Shown here one piece after another: positions 18,766 through 47,077 of a stretch of 56,349 bases of DNA. Made by a program: the position numbers and the translations under genes. The DNA comes from a virus. The DNA is taken from the UHGV virus genome UHGV-0011358; one strand, written 5' to 3'. Each line of letters begins with the position of its first letter. The stretch's first letter is position 1. Under the pieces are notes generated by a model. It was not told where the DNA came from and did no database searches. It saw only the letters and a list, made by a program, of their open reading frames with translations.

Positions 18766-19445
18766 TTGTCAGATCTCCATATTGAATGCGTTTGTCGAAC
18801 ATACGCGGGCCGCATTTGCTCGCGGCGGCTTAACAGTCCGGCATTGTCATGATGCAAAACAGTGTTATCGCCCAGGTAAATCATCGCGTGACATGGGTCA
18901 GCGCCTTTAAACGGCTGACGGATAATTACGTCACCTGGCTGAATACTTTGCGCGTCAACCATGAAAAACCCGTTCAATGGCAGGTTTTTTATGTACAGGT
19001 TTTCCCCACGCAGCCACCACCCATCGTGGCGCTCAAAGTCCGGTAGATCCACGCCGCAAAGGTGATAGGAGTCACGAAAAAGCGAGTAGCAGTCTGTTTT
19101 CCCGTGCTCAAATTTACGACCTAACAGGTGCGCTACCGGGCGGAATTTTCTTACCCTGCCACCGGAACATAAAAACCACGGTAGGCCGGAAATAACCTGC
19201 TGTTGTCGATCCCGTGCTGACAATACCAATGAATCGTCAGTATGGGAGTGAAAAACGGCTGTTATAACGCCTAATTCGTCGGCCTTGATATAATCGTCAG
19301 GCGAGATTTTAAAGCTGTTGTGAGGCGTTTCAGACACGTTTAAACACGGGTAAAAATAATCGTTATCTATCACCAGCCCGCATACTTCCTCGTCAGGGTG
19401 GGCCGCTGCATAGCGAATCATTTTATCTTCAATCGCCATAATCAA
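18708..19445 (-). CDS. K: tail assembly protein K (MPN and NlpC/P60 domains)
   Basis: 245 aa; lambda K-like by eye; gene order L-K-I-J. Confidence 0.8.
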   Translation of the reverse strand: MIMAIEDKMIRYAAAHPDEEVCGLVIDNDYFYPCLNVSETPHNSFKISPDDYIKADELGVITAVFHSHTDDSLVLSARDRQQQVISGLPWFLCSGGRVRKFRPVAHLLGRKFEHGKTDCYSLFRDSYHLCGVDLPDFERHDGWWLRGENLYIKNLPLNGFFMVDAQSIQPGDVIIRQPFKGADPCHAMIYLGDNTVLHHDNAGLLSRREQMRPAYVRQTHSIWRSDKCSNLDLRAIFEDITARCV

Positions 19446-20155
19446 CCCACCTTGCTGGATCCCGGGAAACAGGAAATTGGTAACGGATTAGGACGCGGAA
19501 AACGCAAACGGCAACCGCTTAGGCGGTGGCTGCATTTATCCAGCTTTGGATCACTGGTTGGCTCGTCTTTGTCAGTAGCTACGGGGCCGCCACTGTATCT
19601 GCAACCGTCGCCGCGATATTGCCACTGGCAAACGTCAGCGAGAATTGTGCGCCCAGGGATAACCGCTTTATCTGCATCAATTGGCGTTGACAGTTCATAT
19701 TGCACCTGGTCTGCTGTTTCTTCGCTCATCGCCTCAACGACGTAAAAAGATACAGCCTCAATAGATGGATCTGCATCTGGATTGCCGTTAGGGAAGTTAA
19801 CGGCGTCCAGGTATTTTACTTCCACCTGGCGGCGCGTAACTTTCATTCCTCGCAGGTCGTTGAAATCGTTATTCATCCCCGTAATGAGTCCGCCAATGTT
19901 GGCAACAACCATTTGCGGGCGCGAGTAAACACCTTCGTTTTTCATTTCGAAGCCAGTAGCCTCGATTGGGTAGCTGTTGTAAGTCACTCCCTTCCAGATA
20001 ACCGGGCCGTAATAGCCATTCGCGCCGGAATGGAAGCGGATAACCTCGCCACCCAGGGGCGTTAGGTCTAATTCAAACAAGTCAATTACTGCGCCGACTC
20101 CGGCATCGACGGAATCAATAATCATTTCTGTAGGTATGCTGCGCATTTTTTTCAC
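19442..20155 (-). CDS. L: minor tail protein L
   Basis: Strong by-eye match to lambda L (VEVKYLDAVNFPNGN, Cys-rich C-terminus). Confidence 0.9.
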   Translation of the reverse strand: MKKMRSIPTEMIIDSVDAGVGAVIDLFELDLTPLGGEVIRFHSGANGYYGPVIWKGVTYNSYPIEATGFEMKNEGVYSRPQMVVANIGGLITGMNNDFNDLRGMKVTRRQVEVKYLDAVNFPNGNPDADPSIEAVSFYVVEAMSEETADQVQYELSTPIDADKAVIPGRTILADVCQWQYRGDGCRYSGGPVATDKDEPTSDPKLDKCSHRLSGCRLRFPRPNPLPISCFPGSSKVG

Positions 20156-20275
20156 CTTGTCATTTTGTGATCGCTGTCACGCTAAATCATACCAAAACGG
20201 TTGATAGCGCTTTTTACAATATGTATATTGTACTCAAAAGGAAGCAGGGTTAACAAAATGGCGCGGAGGTGTGAG

Positions 20276-20431
20276 ATGGCTGATAAGGTGTGGAGGTTGA
20301 CGGTATTCCTGTCAGGCGGCAGGGAAATGACTGTAGCTCTGTATAAAGACGAAGGCGAGGCACTAACTGACGCGCTTTTACTTGCTGAAGATGACCGCGT
20401 TTTGGGATACAGGATCGAACCTGCCAAATAG
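20276..20431 (+). CDS. hypothetical small protein (moron island B)
   Basis: 51 aa from ATG 20276 with GGAGGT RBS; opposite strand to tail genes. Confidence 0.35.
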   Translation: MADKVWRLTVFLSGGREMTVALYKDEGEALTDALLLAEDDRVLGYRIEPAK

Positions 20432-20497
20432 GAGGTTAACAAAAAATGAAAAAAATACAGGTTAGACGTGTGGACTGATAAATGCGAATGGGAAAGC

Positions 20498-20797
20498 ATG
20501 GGGCTATTTGACACATTCGAATCAGCGCGTGATGAAGGTTGTGAATTGCTCCGCTGTTGGTCTAGTGCTCGTGATTATTATGTTATTCCGGTACAAGTGC
20601 AGGATAAGGTGGAAGAGATGAACCCGAAAGATATTAACTTTAACGTCAGTGTTGAATTTGCTGACTCTATGGATCAGTCTTGCCCTGGTGAAATACACGC
20701 AAAAGGTTTCCCTGCTGACGATCCAGAAGCAAAACGCGAATACGAAAAAGCTGCGAAAGACTTCTGCATAGATAACCTGGGCGCATTCGATAAATAA
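20498..20797 (+). CDS. hypothetical protein (moron island B)
   Basis: About 100 aa acidic ORF; start uncertain. Confidence 0.4.
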   Translation: MGLFDTFESARDEGCELLRCWSSARDYYVIPVQVQDKVEEMNPKDINFNVSVEFADSMDQSCPGEIHAKGFPADDPEAKREYEKAAKDFCIDNLGAFDK

Positions 20798-20806
20798 GGC
20801 GGCAAC

Positions 20807-21055
20807 ATGGGGAGGCGCAATCACGGCGATTATGTGTACACGTTGAAACAGGCCGCCCGCCTCATCGGTTATCATGAGCACGAATTTATTGATTTGCTGA
20901 TTGAGCGCGGGATACTGTACCAGGTCTGTTTAACGCTGTACCCAAAAGCGAAATACCTACAGGAAAAGTTATTTATCATCATGACGGACGAAAACCAGGT
21001 TAATCATTCATTCGTCACTGATAAGGGCGTTAATTATCTGCGTGATAACTTGTAG
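20807..21055 (+). CDS. hypothetical protein (moron island B)
   Basis: 82 aa ORF. Confidence 0.4.
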   Translation: MGRRNHGDYVYTLKQAARLIGYHEHEFIDLLIERGILYQVCLTLYPKAKYLQEKLFIIMTDENQVNHSFVTDKGVNYLRDNL

Positions 21056-21213: not shown

Positions 21214-21409
21214 ATACGCCATCAACCAAAAATAAAACCTCCTTCCCTTCCCGGGATCTACACCCCACGTACCCATCACCAACGTCGTGAAGATACCATA
21301 TATCGCCGTTGTCAGCTTTTACAGTAAGGTCGTTGATCTCATAGTCGTCAAACAATGTAAAAGCGTAAGTTTTGTCAACTACACAAGTCCCGTACATAAC
21401 AACCCCCAT
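21212..21409 (-). CDS. hypothetical small protein downstream of M
   Basis: 65 aa ORF abutting the M stop. Confidence 0.3.
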   Translation of the reverse strand: MGVVMYGTCVVDKTYAFTLFDDYEINDLTVKADNGDIWYLHDVGDGYVGCRSREGKEVLFLVDGV

Positions 21410-21762
21410 TAGCCAACAACTTGTTCAAACGTTGCGTTTAGCGTGTACACAGGCCCGTCTTTGGTCATGCTCCAGCTACGGCAAACGAAAAGCCTTTGCA
21501 CCCCATCCATCGAAGGCGTCCAGTAGAAAGCATCGACAGCGCCGCGCGCCCTCAAAAATGCTTCAGCCTGGATCGCCACGTTTCCACCATCACCACATCC
21601 CGCGCTACTGCCTTTGAAAACCAGGGTATAACTATCAAGCAACGTGTTAATCCCTTTCGCCTGGCGCTGTTCATAACCATCACCAAGTTTAACGACAGAC
21701 ACATTTGGTTCCCTGGTCACGCTGTAGCTTCTTTGCGGCGTCCATCTGAAAACTTCTGGCAT
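21409..21762 (-). CDS. M: minor tail protein M
   Basis: 117 aa; VKLGDGYEQR and C-terminal FEQVV match lambda M by eye. Confidence 0.8.
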   Translation of the reverse strand: MPEVFRWTPQRSYSVTREPNVSVVKLGDGYEQRQAKGINTLLDSYTLVFKGSSAGCGDGGNVAIQAEAFLRARGAVDAFYWTPSMDGVQRLFVCRSWSMTKDGPVYTLNATFEQVVG

Positions 21763-21932
21763 GATTCCCCCTATAAGTTACATATTGCATACATCTTTAC
21801 GCGCTTCTACGCGAAAAATGAGAAATTCATCACAAGAATTATAACCAGTTTACAAAATGGCTTCACATAAGGCGTGACAAGATGTATATAGTAAGCAAGA
21901 AGAAAAAGCAGTACCGACAAAGGGGGGACAAC

Positions 21933-22088
21933 ATGGAACGCTATATGGTTGTGATGCTGAACAAAGCATTCGAACAGGTGGAAGTTGCGATTGTGAAGGG
22001 CTTTGATGATGCATTCAAATACGGTCAATTCATGATGAATGCAAAAGAAGATGAATACCGTGATTTCTTCCTGAAAGTGGTCAGCTAA
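21933..22088 (+). CDS. hypothetical small protein (moron island C)
   Basis: 51 aa; strong G-rich RBS. Confidence 0.4.
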   Translation: MERYMVVMLNKAFEQVEVAIVKGFDDAFKYGQFMMNAKEDEYRDFFLKVVS

Positions 22089-22106
22089 TGGATTGTGGGG
22101 TGTGTT

Positions 22107-22361
22107 ATGAAATTGGTGGCGATTGGTAAAAACCTGAAAGCACAGAAAAACGCACAGGACCGGATCATCAAAAAGGGCAAGGCTTTATTAAATGCTTTCC
22201 TGAAAAAAGAGGCCAACCCCAAAAAATTACGCGATGGCTACGGTTATAAATTTGACATCAACCCCGATTGGCGGTTATTCAGCGAAGATTTAAAGATGTG
22301 GTTAATTATTGACCACCTGGAATATAACAGGCACTGTGGGGTGAAAGGCGCTCACAAGTGA
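22107..22361 (+). CDS. hypothetical protein (moron island C)
   Basis: 84 aa basic ORF. Confidence 0.4.
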   Translation: MKLVAIGKNLKAQKNAQDRIIKKGKALLNAFLKKEANPKKLRDGYGYKFDINPDWRLFSEDLKMWLIIDHLEYNRHCGVKGAHK

Positions 22362-22392
22362 CACGGATTTGAATGTTGCGGAGGAAAACAAA

Positions 22393-22563
22393 ATGAAAAA
22401 TCCGGCAAATAAAAGCAACGTAAAACGCATAGCATGGGTGCTAAAATATATGGATAGTAAAGGGGATACATATACATGCCCATTTTTTAGGTATACTGAC
22501 GCGGTATTTGCCAGAAGTGTACACGGAGGGAAAATTGAAAGAGGATATACAAGATTTGAGTAA
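22393..22563 (+). CDS. hypothetical small protein (moron island C)
   Basis: 56 aa; GGAGGA RBS. Confidence 0.4.
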   Translation: MKNPANKSNVKRIAWVLKYMDSKGDTYTCPFFRYTDAVFARSVHGGKIERGYTRFE

Positions 22564-22601
22564 ATTTATTCACGAAATCAATAACATGATGAAGGTTTAT
22601 A

Positions 22602-22781
22602 ATGATTATTCACGAGACTGAAGAATGTAGAAGGATTGATCTTAGTGTTGAAGATGATGGAAGATTATGGATCGTTAGCGACTGCGAGATGATTGTAATA
22701 GACAAAAAGCAAGCTGACGAACTGATAAGCGCATTACAGCTTTATGCAAACGGCGAATTTAAAAATGATGAAATTGAATAA
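22602..22781 (+). CDS. hypothetical small protein (moron island C)
   Basis: 59 aa ORF not in the track; terminator follows. Confidence 0.35.
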   Translation: MIIHETEECRRIDLSVEDDGRLWIVSDCEMIVIDKKQADELISALQLYANGEFKNDEIE

Positions 22782-41167: not shown

Positions 41168-41557
41168 TTAAAATTCTGCACCAGGTAAGCTACGCGCTTT
41201 ATTTACCGCATCGTGTTTTAACGATAAACCAGCGTGATAATTCATAATCCCCATATTACCAACCGGTATTTCATTATTTTCTGCCTTTATTCTTAACAAC
41301 TGGTTTTTAGTGAAGATCCTGTCTCCATCAGTGATATATAACCAGTCGCCGCGCTTACCAACAACAACATGAGATCTGCCTAAGCTGTCTTTAAATTCAT
41401 AATTGCAGAAAACATCACCTTTAGGAACTTCAACAAAACAGCACGCAATGAACTTATTGCTTTTCATGATTTTGCCCATCCGCCTTTCTGTGCTCATATA
41501 TAACAAAACGGCGCTGCCTGAACAATGCCATTTCGTATACATTGTGATACTAGTCAC
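41168..41557 (-). CDS. hypothetical protein (cargo block)
   Basis: 129 aa ORF; start uncertain. Confidence 0.4.
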   Translation of the reverse strand: MTSITMYTKWHCSGSAVLLYMSTERRMGKIMKSNKFIACCFVEVPKGDVFCNYEFKDSLGRSHVVVGKRGDWLYITDGDRIFTKNQLLRIKAENNEIPVGNMGIMNYHAGLSLKHDAVNKARSLPGAEF

Positions 41558-41578
41558 ATTTTGCGCAATTAACTTTTA

Positions 41579-41845
41579 TCAGAAAACACCTTTATAATCG
41601 ACCGTGTATTTTGCCACTAATTTCCAGTCACAATAGTTTTCCATGTCGCGCGGTTGCCAGCCTTTCATACCAACAGCACTTCGCGCAGCGTGGCGGCGAC
41701 AGTTGTCGTTAAGATCTACAACACACCACGACTGAAGCACAAACATGTATCCAGCCTCGTTAACCAGGATCGCCATCTGCTTTCCTGTTGCCTTATCTTT
41801 TGCCCGGAAATAACTTACCCTGATTTTCATTTTTAATAACCTCAA
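41579..41845 (-). CDS. hypothetical protein (cargo block)
   Basis: 88 aa ORF. Confidence 0.4.
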   Translation of the reverse strand: MRLLKMKIRVSYFRAKDKATGKQMAILVNEAGYMFVLQSWCVVDLNDNCRRHAARSAVGMKGWQPRDMENYCDWKLVAKYTVDYKGVF

Positions 41846-43576: not shown

Positions 43577-43769
43577 TGTCGTTTCTCCGTCCGTAAATAT
43601 GAACAGGCTCAATTGGCACGGCTGGTAATTCACCTTCGTTTAATGCGCTTGCCATGCCCAATATTAAACGCGCTTCAGCACCGGTAACTTTCTTGCACCA
43701 TGCACCGCCCGTTTTATCTTCGAACAAGATAACAGCAAACTGATCGTTTATTTCCAGCTTATCCATCAT
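43566..43769 (-). CDS. hypothetical protein (cargo block)
   Basis: 67 aa ORF directly downstream of Q. Confidence 0.4.
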   Translation of the reverse strand: MMDKLEINDQFAVILFEDKTGGAWCKKVTGAEARLILGMASALNEGELPAVPIEPVHIYGRRNDNEA

Positions 43770-44488
43770 TCACCCCGTGTCACTCGTTTGATTTCGTTGT
43801 CAGCCCGCGCCTCTTCTTTGAACAATTCGGCAATGGCGTCTTCATAGAAAGCGCGGTACTTCTTCCACCATGTTGATCGGCTTACCGGAAAAACAAGCTG
43901 ATTAACCGCCTGCCGGACAAGATCTACAGGGAAACGCGAGTACCCGCGCCCGCCGCAGTGCTGGCACGTTTTGAATACTGGCATTTCCGCCGCTTCGCTG
44001 GCTGTTTTATCCGGTATCTCGCCACGACCCTTGCATTGTTTACAATGATTGCGAACTGTCCCATGCCCCTTGCATTTTTTGCAAAGGTGTTTTTCTCCGT
44101 ATTCGTCAAACGTAAATTTATATCCGCCGCACTCCATACAAGTTTTTTCCGTCGCGGCGCTTTGGCAATAATCCCGAAACGCGAAAACGGCAACAAGAAT
44201 AATGAGATCATTGCGTTTGGCCTCGTCCAGTTCCATAACGTATTCATAATCTTTTGCCATAGCCCTTAAACGCTCTGTAAGCAAAACTACGGCCTTATGT
44301 TTTTCGGCTTGTGATAGTTCCATCTTCCCTAAAAAAGCGCTATAACCAAGCTCTACGCGCGATTGCGCCATACCTGCGGCAGTTAGTGCATCCGTAGTAT
44401 TAAACGCATCCGGGGACGTGCCCCGACTTTCATCTGATAAACGCGGTGATTTTGGGAAGTGGAATTTGAGAATTGATTCCAAATTCAT
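43766..44488 (-). CDS. Q: late-gene antiterminator Q
   Basis: N-terminus MNLESILKFHFPKSP and Cys-rich zinc-finger region match lambda Q by eye. Confidence 0.85.
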   Translation of the reverse strand: MNLESILKFHFPKSPRLSDESRGTSPDAFNTTDALTAAGMAQSRVELGYSAFLGKMELSQAEKHKAVVLLTERLRAMAKDYEYVMELDEAKRNDLIILVAVFAFRDYCQSAATEKTCMECGGYKFTFDEYGEKHLCKKCKGHGTVRNHCKQCKGRGEIPDKTASEAAEMPVFKTCQHCGGRGYSRFPVDLVRQAVNQLVFPVSRSTWWKKYRAFYEDAIAELFKEEARADNEIKRVTRGE

Positions 44489-44673: not shown

Positions 44674-45075
44674 TCACCCCCACATATTAGTTTCGTATTC
44701 ACCAATATCCGGTAACAGGTCGCCGCGTTCGCGTACCTTAATAAACAATCGCCCGCCCTTTACCTTCCGGCAGCGTACAAACTTCATTACGTCAACCTGG
44801 CTGTCATCGGCCCAAAAACCGGAATAAGTTATAGCGTCAAACAATGCTTTCCCCACATTATCAATATCACGGCGGCGGGCGTCTGGCGGGGCAATATACA
44901 CGGTTATTGATAATCTGCATTGAAGACTTATATCAAGATTGAGTAGCTCTATAATATCCTTCACCTGCTCCCTGTATTCTTTACCTTCCTTGCTTATGTA
45001 GTTAACTCCCCTGGCGTGGCGGTAATATTTATTCGCCGTTGGCGGATACGGAAGTGTCATAGTGTATTCGTTCAT
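44674..45075 (-). CDS. rusA: RusA Holliday junction resolvase
   Basis: MNEYTMTLPYPP...KYYRH and DIDN motif match RusA by eye. Confidence 0.8.
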   Translation of the reverse strand: MNEYTMTLPYPPTANKYYRHARGVNYISKEGKEYREQVKDIIELLNLDISLQCRLSITVYIAPPDARRRDIDNVGKALFDAITYSGFWADDSQVDVMKFVRCRKVKGGRLFIKVRERGDLLPDIGEYETNMWG

Positions 45076-45556
45076 TTCTGTCACCATGTCCAGAGTGAAA
45101 ATTATATTTTATCTCTGCTTCCTCTCTTGCTTTAACAGCATCGCTAAAGCTATCAAAATACCCTAAATTATAAAGCACCCCTTTAACTCTTATATATGAA
45201 TGCCATTTACTTAACGGCTTATACCAACGAACACCGACCCTACCACTCTTATTTCTTGAGCTTAAACTAGCATTTTTCATGTTTTCTTCATGAGTTACTA
45301 ACCTTAAATTTTCTATTCTGTTGTTATATGGTATATGGTCCAAATGATCTATCTCGTAACCTTTAGGAATCGGGCCGTTAAACATTTCCCAAATAATACA
45401 ATGGCAAAGATGATGTTTATACTTGTACATCACCCTTACATAACCTATCCCAAATCTATTTCCGGCGATGTCACCTTTATTGACGTTCCCGCTAGGTTTT
45501 ATTTTCCAGTATAAGGTTCCGTCGTTGTATTCAAATATATCATGCCAATTAATCAT
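45029..45556 (-). CDS. HNH homing endonuclease (HNH plus AP2-like)
   Basis: EIDHLDHIPYNNRIENLRLVTHEEN; paralog of 2887-3393, 46550-47077, 51515-51979. Confidence 0.75.
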   Translation of the reverse strand: MINWHDIFEYNDGTLYWKIKPSGNVNKGDIAGNRFGIGYVRVMYKYKHHLCHCIIWEMFNGPIPKGYEIDHLDHIPYNNRIENLRLVTHEENMKNASLSSRNKSGRVGVRWYKPLSKWHSYIRVKGVLYNLGYFDSFSDAVKAREEAEIKYNFHSGHGDRNERIHYDTSVSANGE

Positions 45557-46171: not shown

Positions 46172-46348
46172 ATTATTTTTGATTCTCTGTTTCGTTCAGC
46201 CTTTCGGCGTGTCCGGCCCTTAGCCAATGTTCTAAGCATTCGTTGCACTCGTTACAGCCTCCTTTCTTCGTGCTGCATACATTGCACATTGCACGCATGA
46301 CGCTCTCTCGTTCATAGTCGTCATGCCATTGGTAATTATCAAAAGTCA
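46172..46348 (-). CDS. small Cys-rich ORF (zinc-ribbon-like)
   Basis: About 58 aa with CxxC...CxxC, not in track; coordinates approximate. Confidence 0.3.
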
Positions 46349-46549
46349 TAATGCTCTCTCCTTTTCAGGTGATTTCTACGCATTTCAGCGCTGCCGGATT
46401 TTTAAAGAGCATTTTGTTTGCTTGAAGTATACAAAATGGATACACCAGAACAAGGCGAAAAGCGCCATTATGTGATCCATATCACACAATGACGCCATTT
46501 TGTAAACTTCAGTCCGGTAAAACGCTGGCGTGGTTAGCTAAAAGCTGTT

Positions 46550-47077
46550 CTATTTGCCGTGATTTTCATGATAGCCATACTCTTTTTCAGCGTCTAGCCG
46601 CGCTTTTATCGCGTCATTAATATTAGAAAAACACCCTATATAAACTCTATCACCTCTCTTGCCTCCACCTATTCTAACAACCCATTTACCATGTTTATTT
46701 TTATGGATACCAGAATATCCGCTGGTATTGTTTACCATTAAAGACATGTTGCGCATATTATCTTTATGGTCTTTTAATCCAAGATTGACGGCTCGATTAT
46801 CTGTTTTAACGTGATTTATATGATCAACCTCCTTACCTTCAGGTATTGGTCCATAGTACATCTCGTAACATATTCTATGCACCTTTAAATTATAACGCTT
46901 TCCACCCACGGTAAGCGCTGTATTAAGATACCCACCGCTTCCGCCAATATGCCCAACTTCATGACCAGCATTACACGCATTCCATTGTTTACGCCTTGAT
47001 TCTTCTATGTCATTTCTATATTTCCAGTACAACTTACCTGTGTCTGGATTGTATATAAAATAATCATCCCAATTCAT
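46550..47077 (-). CDS. HNH homing endonuclease (HNH plus AP2-like)
   Basis: EVDHINHVKTDNRAVNL motif; paralog family. Confidence 0.75.
   Translation of the reverse strand: MNWDDYFIYNPDTGKLYWKYRNDIEESRRKQWNACNAGHEVGHIGGSGGYLNTALTVGGKRYNLKVHRICYEMYYGPIPEGKEVDHINHVKTDNRAVNLGLKDHKDNMRNMSLMVNNTSGYSGIHKNKHGKWVVRIGGGKRGDRVYIGCFSNINDAIKARLDAEKEYGYHENHGK

Follow-up and report, generated by a model that had tools for sequence, protein, structure and literature searches.

Predicted CRP-type sites at a fixed distance upstream of a putative promoter family in an mEp021-like temperate coliphage

Introduction

It is a long-standing observation that E. coli and Salmonella strains mutated in cya or crp lysogenize poorly with phages lambda and P22. 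Few direct targets of CRP have, to our knowledge, been described in the genomes of temperate phages, and a literature search for such sites in prophages gave no relevant report. In phage lambda, the CII-dependent promoters pRE, pI and paQ are weak, activator-dependent promoters of the early region that have one activator site at a fixed position. CII is encoded by the phage and recognizes direct repeats, TTGC-N6-TTGC, straddling the -35, and the promoters that depend on it oppose the early operon.

The CRP consensus is a 22-bp site, N3-TGTGA-N6-TCACA-N3, centred at -61.5 in class I promoters (PMC10199772). At lac P1, the sequence of which we confirmed upstream of lacZ in E. coli genomes with 100% identity, the site TGTGAGTTAGCTCACT is followed by 17 nt and TTTACA. 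CRP binding can also occlude Dam, giving rise to undermethylated sites and to ON/OFF subpopulations, as described for nanA and dgoR in Salmonella (PMC7708049).

The mEpimmI phages are Nus-dependent, non-lambdoid temperate coliphages, reported to be prevalent among the Nus-dependent coliphages from human faeces (PMC11893012). The same study lists the terminator t4 as predicted only and places nutR2 in the gap upstream of ninF; it never mentions CRP and uses the word "promoter" once, in a plasmid-construction method. The reading of the predicted t4/nutR2 locus as a putative promoter with a candidate CRP site, which we propose below, is new here.

Results and discussion

The phage, its early operon and its nut sites

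The window analysed here, the whole 56,349-nucleotide stretch of UHGV virus genome UHGV-0011358, is an mEp021-like (mEpimmI group) temperate coliphage. The phages mEp021, mEp013, mEp554, mEp010, mEp044, mEp515 and MagusPhagus are 89-93% identical to the region around position 46471, and this locus was found in 34 of 5,426 complete E. coli genomes, among them those of O157:H7 LSU61 and M1/5. Minus-strand genes form a long early operon running from about 54.6 kb down to 39 kb. Its first gene encodes an N-like antiterminator (54206-54496), and it further includes erf, ssb and abc2 homologues (names from the MagusPhagus and mEp021 annotation), a Dam-family methyltransferase gene (PF05869, 48030-48578), an HNH endonuclease gene (46550-47077), ninF (46173-46349) followed by NinG, and Q (43766-44488), all on the minus strand. 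The strongest early promoter is TTGACT-17-TATATT (54661..54633).

The boxA motif occurs in three copies within the window, corresponding to nutR1 (boxA 54589-54581, minus), nutR2 (46378..46410, minus) and nutL (boxA 55596-55604, plus). The last is located downstream of the promoter predicted at 55492-55519 and is followed by the replication operon, which encodes an O-like initiator, a Rha/ANT protein, an exonuclease, DnaB and NinB. The nutR2 element is composed of the boxA GCTCTTTAA (46410-46402) and of a boxB-like hairpin at about 46391-46378, and is almost unchanged in the relatives: boxA differs in a single sequence out of 48, and the boxB stem varies at some loci. It lies directly downstream of a predicted promoter, P(A), and upstream of ninF. 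The presence of a third nut site deep within the operon becomes understandable if a promoter stands just ahead of it.

Palindromes matching the CRP consensus

An earlier note on this DNA had reported two exact matches to the CRP core TGTGA-N6-TCACA, TGTGATCCATATCACA at 46471-46486 and TGTGATCGCAATCACA at 49840-49855, together with a near copy, TGTGATCGCTGTCACG, at 20166-20181. All three are located as claimed, the near copy being a 9/10 match, and the list was incomplete, as it missed the perfect core TGTGATACTAGTCACA at 41543-41558 and the 9/10 match TTTGATGCAAGTCACA at 55458-55473. Describing them as exact 16 bp palindromes was inaccurate, since arms of 5-6 bp flank a centre that is not palindromic. 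Hereafter the sites at 46471, 49840, 41543 and 20166 are called A, B, C and D, respectively.

The sites were scored by matches to the consensus and not with a weight matrix built from real sites. On this scale the whole window contains three perfect cores (0.04 expected; three were reached in none of 100 shuffles) and nine cores with at most one mismatch (1.66 expected; nine reached in 0/100 shuffles), six of which, including D and the 55458 site, are 9/10 matches. The identical scan of phage lambda returned no perfect core and two 9/10 sites. A chance origin is therefore very unlikely, as had been argued. By a crude ORF map, six of the nine sites fall in intergenic gaps or divergent regions of a genome that is almost all coding. 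The genome-wide scan for TGTGATC that had been suggested as a check gave just a mild enrichment (13 occurrences versus 6.0 expected). Beyond the core, the extended CRP consensus is also matched, by GATCACA and, in the 41543-type cassette, by AAATGTGATCT.

A shared promoter-like architecture

When each site is read on the strand of its downstream gene, the loci at 41543, 46471, 49840 and 55458 have the same succession of elements: the palindrome, 17-18 nt, TTGNNN, a 16-nt spacer ending in CCRTT(T/A)TG and beginning with an 8-nt variable stretch, and then T(A/G/T)(A/T)A(C/T)T. A scan of every CRTTWTGT copy in the window found all these parts combined at those four loci only. Over about 70 nt, the three perfect sites align solely at short, identically spaced islands, namely the palindrome, 17 nt, TTGTTC or TTGTGA, the 16-nt spacer ending in CC(A/G)TTTTG, and TATACT, TGAACT or TTATAT. 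The co-occurrence of the palindromes with CAAAATG, pointed out in the earlier note, holds in a longer form: CAAAATG is weakly enriched (30 versus 18.9 expected), CCRTTTTGT is strongly enriched (15 versus 1.84 expected), and the latter stands at one and the same distance, 31 nt, from the palindrome at each of the three perfect sites. It follows from the four-locus architecture that CAAAATG is the reverse complement of the spacer/-10 junction in a palindrome-bearing family of predicted promoters, and it should be annotated as a putative promoter element.

Promoter strength was estimated with a heuristic sigma-70 weight matrix. Since hits to this matrix are frequent (the window yields 613 collapsed hits at 7 bits or more), a placement test was run, in which four of the nine near-perfect sites were found to have a predicted promoter of at least 7 bits with its -35 starting 16-19 nt downstream, as compared with a mean of 0.43 for random positions (P = 0.0004). 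The predicted site centres range from -59.5 to -62.5, and the gap to the predicted -35 from 17 to 19 nt (17 nt in lac). The values of -59.5 and -60.5, which assume a start 7 nt past the -10, miss -61.5 by 1-2 bp, as the spacer has 16 nt where that of lac has 18. Most of the predicted -35 and -10 elements are weak, in line with what activator-dependent promoters should show.

In common with lac P1, the phage loci have a weak sigma-70 promoter, here a predicted one, that is preceded by TGTGA-N6-TCACA, a gap of 17 nt between site and predicted -35, the same at A, B and C, and a predicted centre near the -61.5 of class I (PMC10199772). By our own count, the phage sites match the 22-bp consensus at 15 of 22 positions, as does the lac site, with better pentamers. 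The phage copies differ in that they form a family of four to five in one genome, their promoter spacer is of 16 nt, the conserved spacer motif CCRTTTTG has no lac counterpart, and one of them also forms the apex of a hairpin that resembles a terminator, ahead of a nut site. With the lambda CII promoters they share the principle of several weak early-region promoters, here predicted, that have one activator site at a fixed position. The element itself is different, an inverted repeat at about -60 that matches a host factor, and the predicted promoters run with the operon and do not oppose it.

Conservation in relatives

Relatives were retrieved from IMG/VR, with 32-50 loci per site. The conservation footprint, drawn from 32-48 relatives per site, retains the arms of the palindrome, the TTG and the -10 region, and leaves the centre of the palindrome and the first 6-8 nt of the spacer hypervariable. 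The distance from palindrome to -35 is free of indels at A and B and differs by 1 nt at D. Conserved arms around a free centre are observed at A and D; B is partly degenerate, and at 55458 the centre is conserved as well. At A and B, the majority of relatives have C, A or G in place of the first T of TGTGA, so that the perfect form is present in a minority only. The CRP-site reading of the earlier note thus gains from the consensus, the conservation of the arms and the lac-like spacing, and loses by the rarity of the perfect form and by the Dam link discussed at the end.

An exact search of 2.9 million viral contigs for the composite pattern returned 44 instances, all in this phage group. The palindromes could, according to a suggestion made with the first description, be part of a mobile repeat; the copies, however, share short islands at fixed spacing only, with unrelated sequence in between, and with four copies per genome and a pattern confined to this phage group they do not look like REP or MITE elements. 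It is also conceivable that the sites are functionless, either left over from recombination joints or matching by chance within A/T-rich intergenic DNA and spread by mosaic modules. The cassettes do stand at mosaic boundaries, as a conserved block begins about 40 nt upstream of site A and C-type copies are found between different genes. Nevertheless, we consider this very unlikely given the enrichment over shuffles and over lambda, the island-like conservation beside hypervariable positions within the same 190 nt, and the recurrence of one spacing at independent loci that have unrelated sequence between the islands. The sites are probably regulatory DNA sites of promoters.

Site A, its predicted promoter and the t4 hairpin

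Site A (TGTGATATGGATCACA, 46471..46486, minus strand) is a 10/10 CRP-type core centred at about -59.5 from the predicted start of P(A). The predicted -35 of this promoter, TTGTTC (46448..46453, minus), is found 17 nt past the palindrome, and the end of the spacer, CCATTTTG, together with the predicted -10, TATACT, occupies 46426..46439 on the same strand, the CAAAATG first noticed being at 46432-46438. With 10.27 bits, TTGTTC-16-TATACT ranks at the 99.989th percentile of the window. Among 48 sequences from relatives (39 distinct), the arms (T/C)GTGAT and TCACA are invariant but for the first base, with the central 4-6 nt in more than ten forms; TTGTT is invariant in all 48, between 5 hypervariable nt before it and 6 after it, and GTATCC[A/G]TTTTGTATACTTCAA is almost invariant.

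The site is homologous to part of the hairpin annotated as TERM_4/t4 in mEp021, with the boxA and boxB located downstream corresponding to nutR2 (PMC11893012); the annotation covers the 34 nt homologous to the hairpin described here. The nut-type succession of a boxA consensus and a boxB hairpin is found in the element adjoining site A and not in the palindrome. In the minus-strand RNA, a hairpin of 16 bp is predicted (46461..46496; arms GGCGUCAUUGUGUGAU and AUCACAUAAUGGCGCU) that has site A at its apex, includes three G.U pairs and is followed by UUUUC. It folds better on the transcribed strand (-24 kcal/mol, z -4.56) than on the opposite one (-17.7 kcal/mol), and in the relatives 94.9% of cells are paired.

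These features, which the earlier note did not mention, raise the question of whether the palindromes act as RNA, being stem-loops at which the early transcript is terminated intrinsically or processed (e.g. by RNase III) and which N-like Gp17 antitermination reads through, in which case their likeness to CRP sites would be incidental. Besides the strand preference, the UUUU and the t4 annotation, this would agree with stem flanks as conserved as the core and with the strong fold of the surrounding 150 nt (-54.8 kcal/mol, z -6.15). On the other hand, covariation in the hairpin gave no signal above shuffles in the 39 distinct sequences, the commonest variant (27/39) has a C.A mismatch in the stem, and the U-tract is short and interrupted in some relatives, including mEp021 (CTATTC). 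A simple terminator scan did not call the hairpin, an Rfam scan of the whole window returned no matches, and the fixed distances to TTG and to CCRTTTTG would be left unexplained. An RNA role does not explain the palindrome family as a whole, and as the general account of these sites we regard it as improbable.

For site A alone, an RNA role as an extra function is plausible. The conservation of the stem flanks and a dyad symmetry that extends past the 22-bp CRP footprint indicate that something else also constrains this site. When transcribed from upstream, the sequence would form the top of hairpin t4, and the locus could plausibly be read as a terminator, a CRP-dependent promoter and a nut site, in this order. 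A hairpin annotated as a terminator may hence double as an activator site.

The fold of about 150 nt around site A arises because a mirror copy of the -10 region flanks the palindrome on its far side. This copy, CCATTTTGTAAACT (46495..46508, plus strand), makes up the outer stem of the large predicted fold, whose 42 pairs gave no covariation above shuffles. Taken with the palindrome arm ATCACA as -35, it also yields a divergent promoter-like element, ATCACA-16-TAAACT, of 8.0 bits. Antisense promoters on the plus strand were considered at the three perfect sites and discarded, as no consistent -35 and -10 were found.

Sites B and C and a portable cassette

Site B (TGTGATTGCGATCACA, 49840..49855, minus) is positioned just past the stop codon of 49859-50488 and upstream of 49541-49759. 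Its predicted promoter, P(B) (49795..49822, minus), consists of TTGTGA (49822-49817), a 16-nt spacer ending in CCGTTTTG and TGAACT (49800-49795). Its -35 overlaps a third half-site, GATCACA (49815-49821, plus strand), and it is a weak promoter in the window (4.07 bits, percentile 99.24). In 44 relatives, site B matches the core at 10/10 positions in 5, 9/10 in 20 and 8/10 in 19; some copies bear GTAAT or TCGCA, changes that would be expected to weaken CRP binding. The -10 also varies, being TGAACT in some loci and mostly either TAAACT, which is better, or TAAGCC, which is worse, having no T at -7, and is present in about half of the relatives.

At B and C, the stems that an RNA role would require are only 5-6 bp long, A/U-rich and without U-tract, with ordinary folds (z -1.5 and -1.4). 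An alternative 10-bp stem at site B (GCGATCACA-N18-TGTGATCGC) shows one compensatory double change in 3 variants, which speaks for pairing, but the compensation is inconsistent, as the change is one-sided at 4 loci and the partner is lost in the variant L210, and this stem was rejected. L210 has kept TGTGA and TCACA around a wholly different centre and has lost the third half-site, so that a protein site is favoured over an RNA stem.

Site C (TGTGACTAGTATCACA, 41543..41558, minus), a perfect core, falls within the 99 nt that separate 41579-41845 from the gene with its start at 41479. P(C) (41498..41525, minus) is predicted from TTGTTC (41525-41520), a 16-nt spacer ending, as in P(B), in CCGTTTTG, and TTATAT/TATATA, and scores 7.3 bits when the spacer is taken as 17 nt (percentile 99.89). 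A different combination beside this site on the plus strand, TTAACT-18-TATAAT, is strong; it was set aside because it would put the site at -54.5 and is unique to the 41543 locus.

Site C precedes its window gene in only about a quarter of the variants, and its right half is missing in two. The C-type cassette, of about 66 nt from AAATGTGA to TTATAWA, occurs in at least four upstream and at least three downstream contexts in the relatives. The similarity starts exactly at AAATGTGA and stops at the -10, and the neighbouring genes differ. In most copies the left half is AAATGTGATCT, an 11/11 match to the left half of the CRP consensus. Conservation from the edge of the 22-bp CRP footprint to the -10, together with shuffling among genes, would be expected of a portable regulated promoter, here a predicted one. 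Morons are accessory genes of prophages that have a promoter and a terminator of their own. The cassette recalls them in travelling with various small genes, as does the module downstream of site D with its strong stand-alone predicted promoter; the general concept of a moron does not include a CRP-type site at a set distance.

The 55458 site and site D

The 9/10 site TTTGATGCAAGTCACA (55458..55473, plus) precedes, by 18 nt, the -35 of the rightward early promoter, which is predicted at 55492..55519 (plus) from TTGACC, a 16-nt spacer ending in CCATTATG, and TAAACT. With 12.48 bits (99.998th percentile), and since it adjoins the repressor gene and is followed by nutL, this element is credible as an early promoter with the same spacer motif and the same type of -10 as the palindrome family. 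In the relatives the -35 and CCATT(T/C/A)TG TAAACT are conserved and the first eight bases of the spacer are free. The 55458 site, the left half of which is FNR-like (TTTGA), is nearly invariant in 44 relatives. A leaderless promoter is predicted for the repressor gene on the opposite strand, and its -35 overlaps the site.

Site D (TGTGATCGCTGTCACG, 20166..20181, plus), a 9/10 match, is found 19 nt upstream of TTGATA-17-TATATT (20201-20229), the strong promoter predicted for an accessory (moron) module that is inserted on the plus strand between the tail genes M and L; the predicted centre of the site is at -62.5. In 32 relatives TGTGA and TCACG are invariant, the centre varies and the gap is of 19 or 20 nt. 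The possibility that this locus is a mere junction between the M and L tail genes was dismissed, as the plus-strand ORFs are real genes by PHROG hits. Both D and the 55458 site are upstream of promoters that point away from the long operon, a further argument against a common role as stem-loops of the early transcript.

The factor that may bind the sites

A search of the window with E. coli CRP (tblastn) returned noise only; as the phage has no CRP homologue, host CRP would be the obvious binder. Perfect TGTGA-N6-TCACA cores are expected from established knowledge to be bound by host cAMP-CRP. We rate host CRP as the factor acting at the predicted sites at somewhat better than an even chance, and from their sequence features the loci at 41543, 46471, 49840 and 55458 probably constitute a family of class I CRP-dependent promoters. 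In this scheme, where we infer that the -35/-10 elements are real promoters and that CRP binds and activates them, a CRP-type dimer, most likely host cAMP-CRP, would bind the palindromes 17-19 bp upstream of the -35 of the phage promoters. At high cAMP, bound CRP would recruit RNA polymerase via the alpha C-terminal domain and raise transcription. Its targets would be the replication operon (through 55492-55519, followed by nutL), an internal restart promoter at 46471 that feeds nutR2, the nin genes and Q, two small accessory units at 49840 and 41543, and, at 20166, the moron in the tail region. Early genes may in this manner be coupled to the nutritional state of the host. Should the sites be real, this phage group would offer a clean model in which a global regulator of the host directly drives early, replication and accessory promoters of a phage.

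Alternatively, the sites could be operators of a phage-encoded regulator or of a host regulator other than CRP, for example an early dimeric helix-turn-helix protein or the Rep021 repressor, that binds TGTGAT-N4-ATCACA and switches the promoter family on or off, the CRP likeness being coincidence or mimicry. The restriction of the composite architecture to this phage group would suit such a regulator, as would the phage-specific spacer motif CCRTTTTG, which no sigma-70 or CRP rule accounts for. The same can be said of the conservation at the centre of the 55458 site, which a typical CRP spacer would not show, of the position of this site in the immunity region over the predicted repressor promoter, and of the precedent of lambda CII with its three activated weak promoters.

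We nonetheless judge another regulator unlikely. The main early promoter at 54661..54633, necessarily under repressor control, has no palindrome, and better candidates for immunity operators exist elsewhere, AAAACACGTTTT and the inverted repeat TTGACTCG..CGAGTCAA; on both counts the immunity repressor is an unlikely binder, and we rejected immunity operators as the identity of the sites. In addition, the CRP-specific flanks (AAATGTGATCT, GATCACA) are matched, which would be needless for an unrelated protein, and host CRP would bind the perfect cores regardless. No candidate protein was found, the sole Crp-like helix-turn-helix hit (HTH_Crp_2, 55736-55981) being weak, below the Pfam cut-off, and attributable to the wHTH of the O-like replication initiator. 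Among other known elements, neither LexA, DnaA, IHF and Fur boxes nor the sigma-54, sigma-32, sigma-28, sigma-E and sigma-S consensus sequences fit the sites when compared by eye.

GATC in the sites and the Dam link

The presence of a Dam-family methyltransferase encoded by the phage, claimed in the earlier note, is confirmed by the PF05869 match. The companion claim, that GATC is embedded in the sites, is true of A, B and D and does not extend to C and the 55458 site. GATC is kept in 30 of 40 relatives at site A (lost in 10) and in 38 of 44 at site B (lost in 6). Since the extended CRP consensus TGTGATCTAGATCACA itself includes GATC, and GATC is over-represented across the whole genome (236 versus 172 expected), a link to Dam is not special to these sites; it is a reasonable idea that on present evidence would be no more than a by-product of the CRP consensus.

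As a speculation to which we attach little probability, the sites might form a small cAMP-CRP regulon of portable promoter cassettes that ties phage decisions to the carbon status of the host. In it, 55458-55473 would be a nutritional toggle between the leaderless repressor promoter and the replication promoter, 46471 would restart transcription at nutR2 towards Q, and competition between CRP and the Dam of the host or of the phage at the GATC-bearing sites would add heritable ON/OFF heterogeneity among lysogens. The likeness to Salmonella nanA and dgoR is that of GATC embedded in predicted CRP sites. In contrast to these, GATC is absent from two of the five phage sites and is not fully conserved, and the phage adds a Dam of its own.

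Dyad symmetry around site A and sequences flanking the strongest promoters

Dyad symmetry extends beyond site A, the perfect CRP-type palindrome at 46471-46486 (minus strand), and gives rise to a predicted RNA fold of 42 pairs (46370-46520, minus strand; -54.8 kcal/mol, z -6.15) that contains the t4 hairpin as well as the predicted -35 element. Since no covariation was detected for this fold among 39 distinct relatives, it may correspond to a mirrored promoter element instead of an RNA structure.

In its reverse form, CAAAATGGA, the motif immediately adjoins the -35 element of the two strongest predicted promoters, a position in which it resembles a proximal UP-element subsite; the weak promoters carry CCRTTTTG within their spacers. 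At the main early promoter (TTGACT-17-TATATT, 54661..54633) CAAAATGGA occupies positions 54663-54676 (plus strand). At the moron promoter the window copy reads CAAAACGG-TTGATA, with the reverse motif at 20190-20200 (plus strand), and in most of the related loci from other viral contigs (L216-L247) CAAAATGGA abuts a moron promoter of the form TTGATC-17-TATATT.

Accessory modules in the tail region

The moron promoter (20201-20229) lies next to a three-gene accessory module (20276-21055, plus strand), an insertion that separates tail gene M (21409-21762) from tail gene L (19442-20155). Its -10 element is overlapped by a 434-like perfect palindrome, TACAATAT-GT-ATATTGTA (20215-20232, plus strand), which suggests that the module has a dedicated repressor. 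A second accessory module is found at 21882-22781 (plus strand), and the divergent gap separating it from gene M harbors a copy of CCATTTTGTAAACT (21852-21860) together with TGAGAAATTCATCACA (21819-21834), a CRP-type palindrome with a single mismatch (9/10), centered at about -72.5 relative to a promoter-like TTCACA-19-TATAGT on the plus strand.

The repressor gene and candidate operators

The gene for the CI-like repressor (54786-55432, minus strand) consists of two ORFs sharing 58 nt, one encoding the HTH part (55175-55432) and the other the Peptidase_S24 part (54786-55232), and its total span of 647 nt is not divisible by three. The split looks like a frameshift, which may mean that this is a repressor-defective variant of the phage or that there is an error in the sequence. 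A promoter, TTGCAT-17-TAGGGT, is predicted for this gene at 55439-55467 (minus strand), with its -35 element overlapped by another 9/10 palindrome (55458-55473). As transcription from this promoter is predicted to begin at the first base of the repressor start codon (ATG, 55432), the resulting mRNA would be leaderless, a trait shared with lambda cI transcribed from pRM.

Each early control region contains one near-palindrome, AAAACACGTTTT at 54716-54727 and AAAACGTGTTTT at 55473-55484, and at the main early promoter a 38-bp inverted repeat, TTGACTCG..CGAGTCAA (54624-54661), covers the core. We consider the near-palindromes and the inverted repeat as candidate operators of a Rep021-type repressor.

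Genome organization and occurrence in E. coli

The gene for an O-like replication initiator appears to span both window ends (55736-56349 and 1-626), with positions 55736-55981 encoding the N-terminal wHTH and positions 111-626 the C-terminal part. The window thus appears to represent the genome in circularly permuted form. The nin region includes two HNH_3 endonuclease genes on the minus strand (46550-47077 and 45029-45556), the former located where relatives have a DNA cytosine methyltransferase, and both are possibly homing-endonuclease insertions. GATC is enriched across the window, with 236 occurrences versus 172 expected (a count reached by none of 100 shuffles), and the phage encodes its own Dam-family methyltransferase.

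Among 5,426 complete E. coli genomes, 34 contain the region comprising nutR2 and site A, each as a single chromosomal copy, and the carriers (matches H11-H35) include O157:H7 LSU61 as well as several STEC and human isolates.
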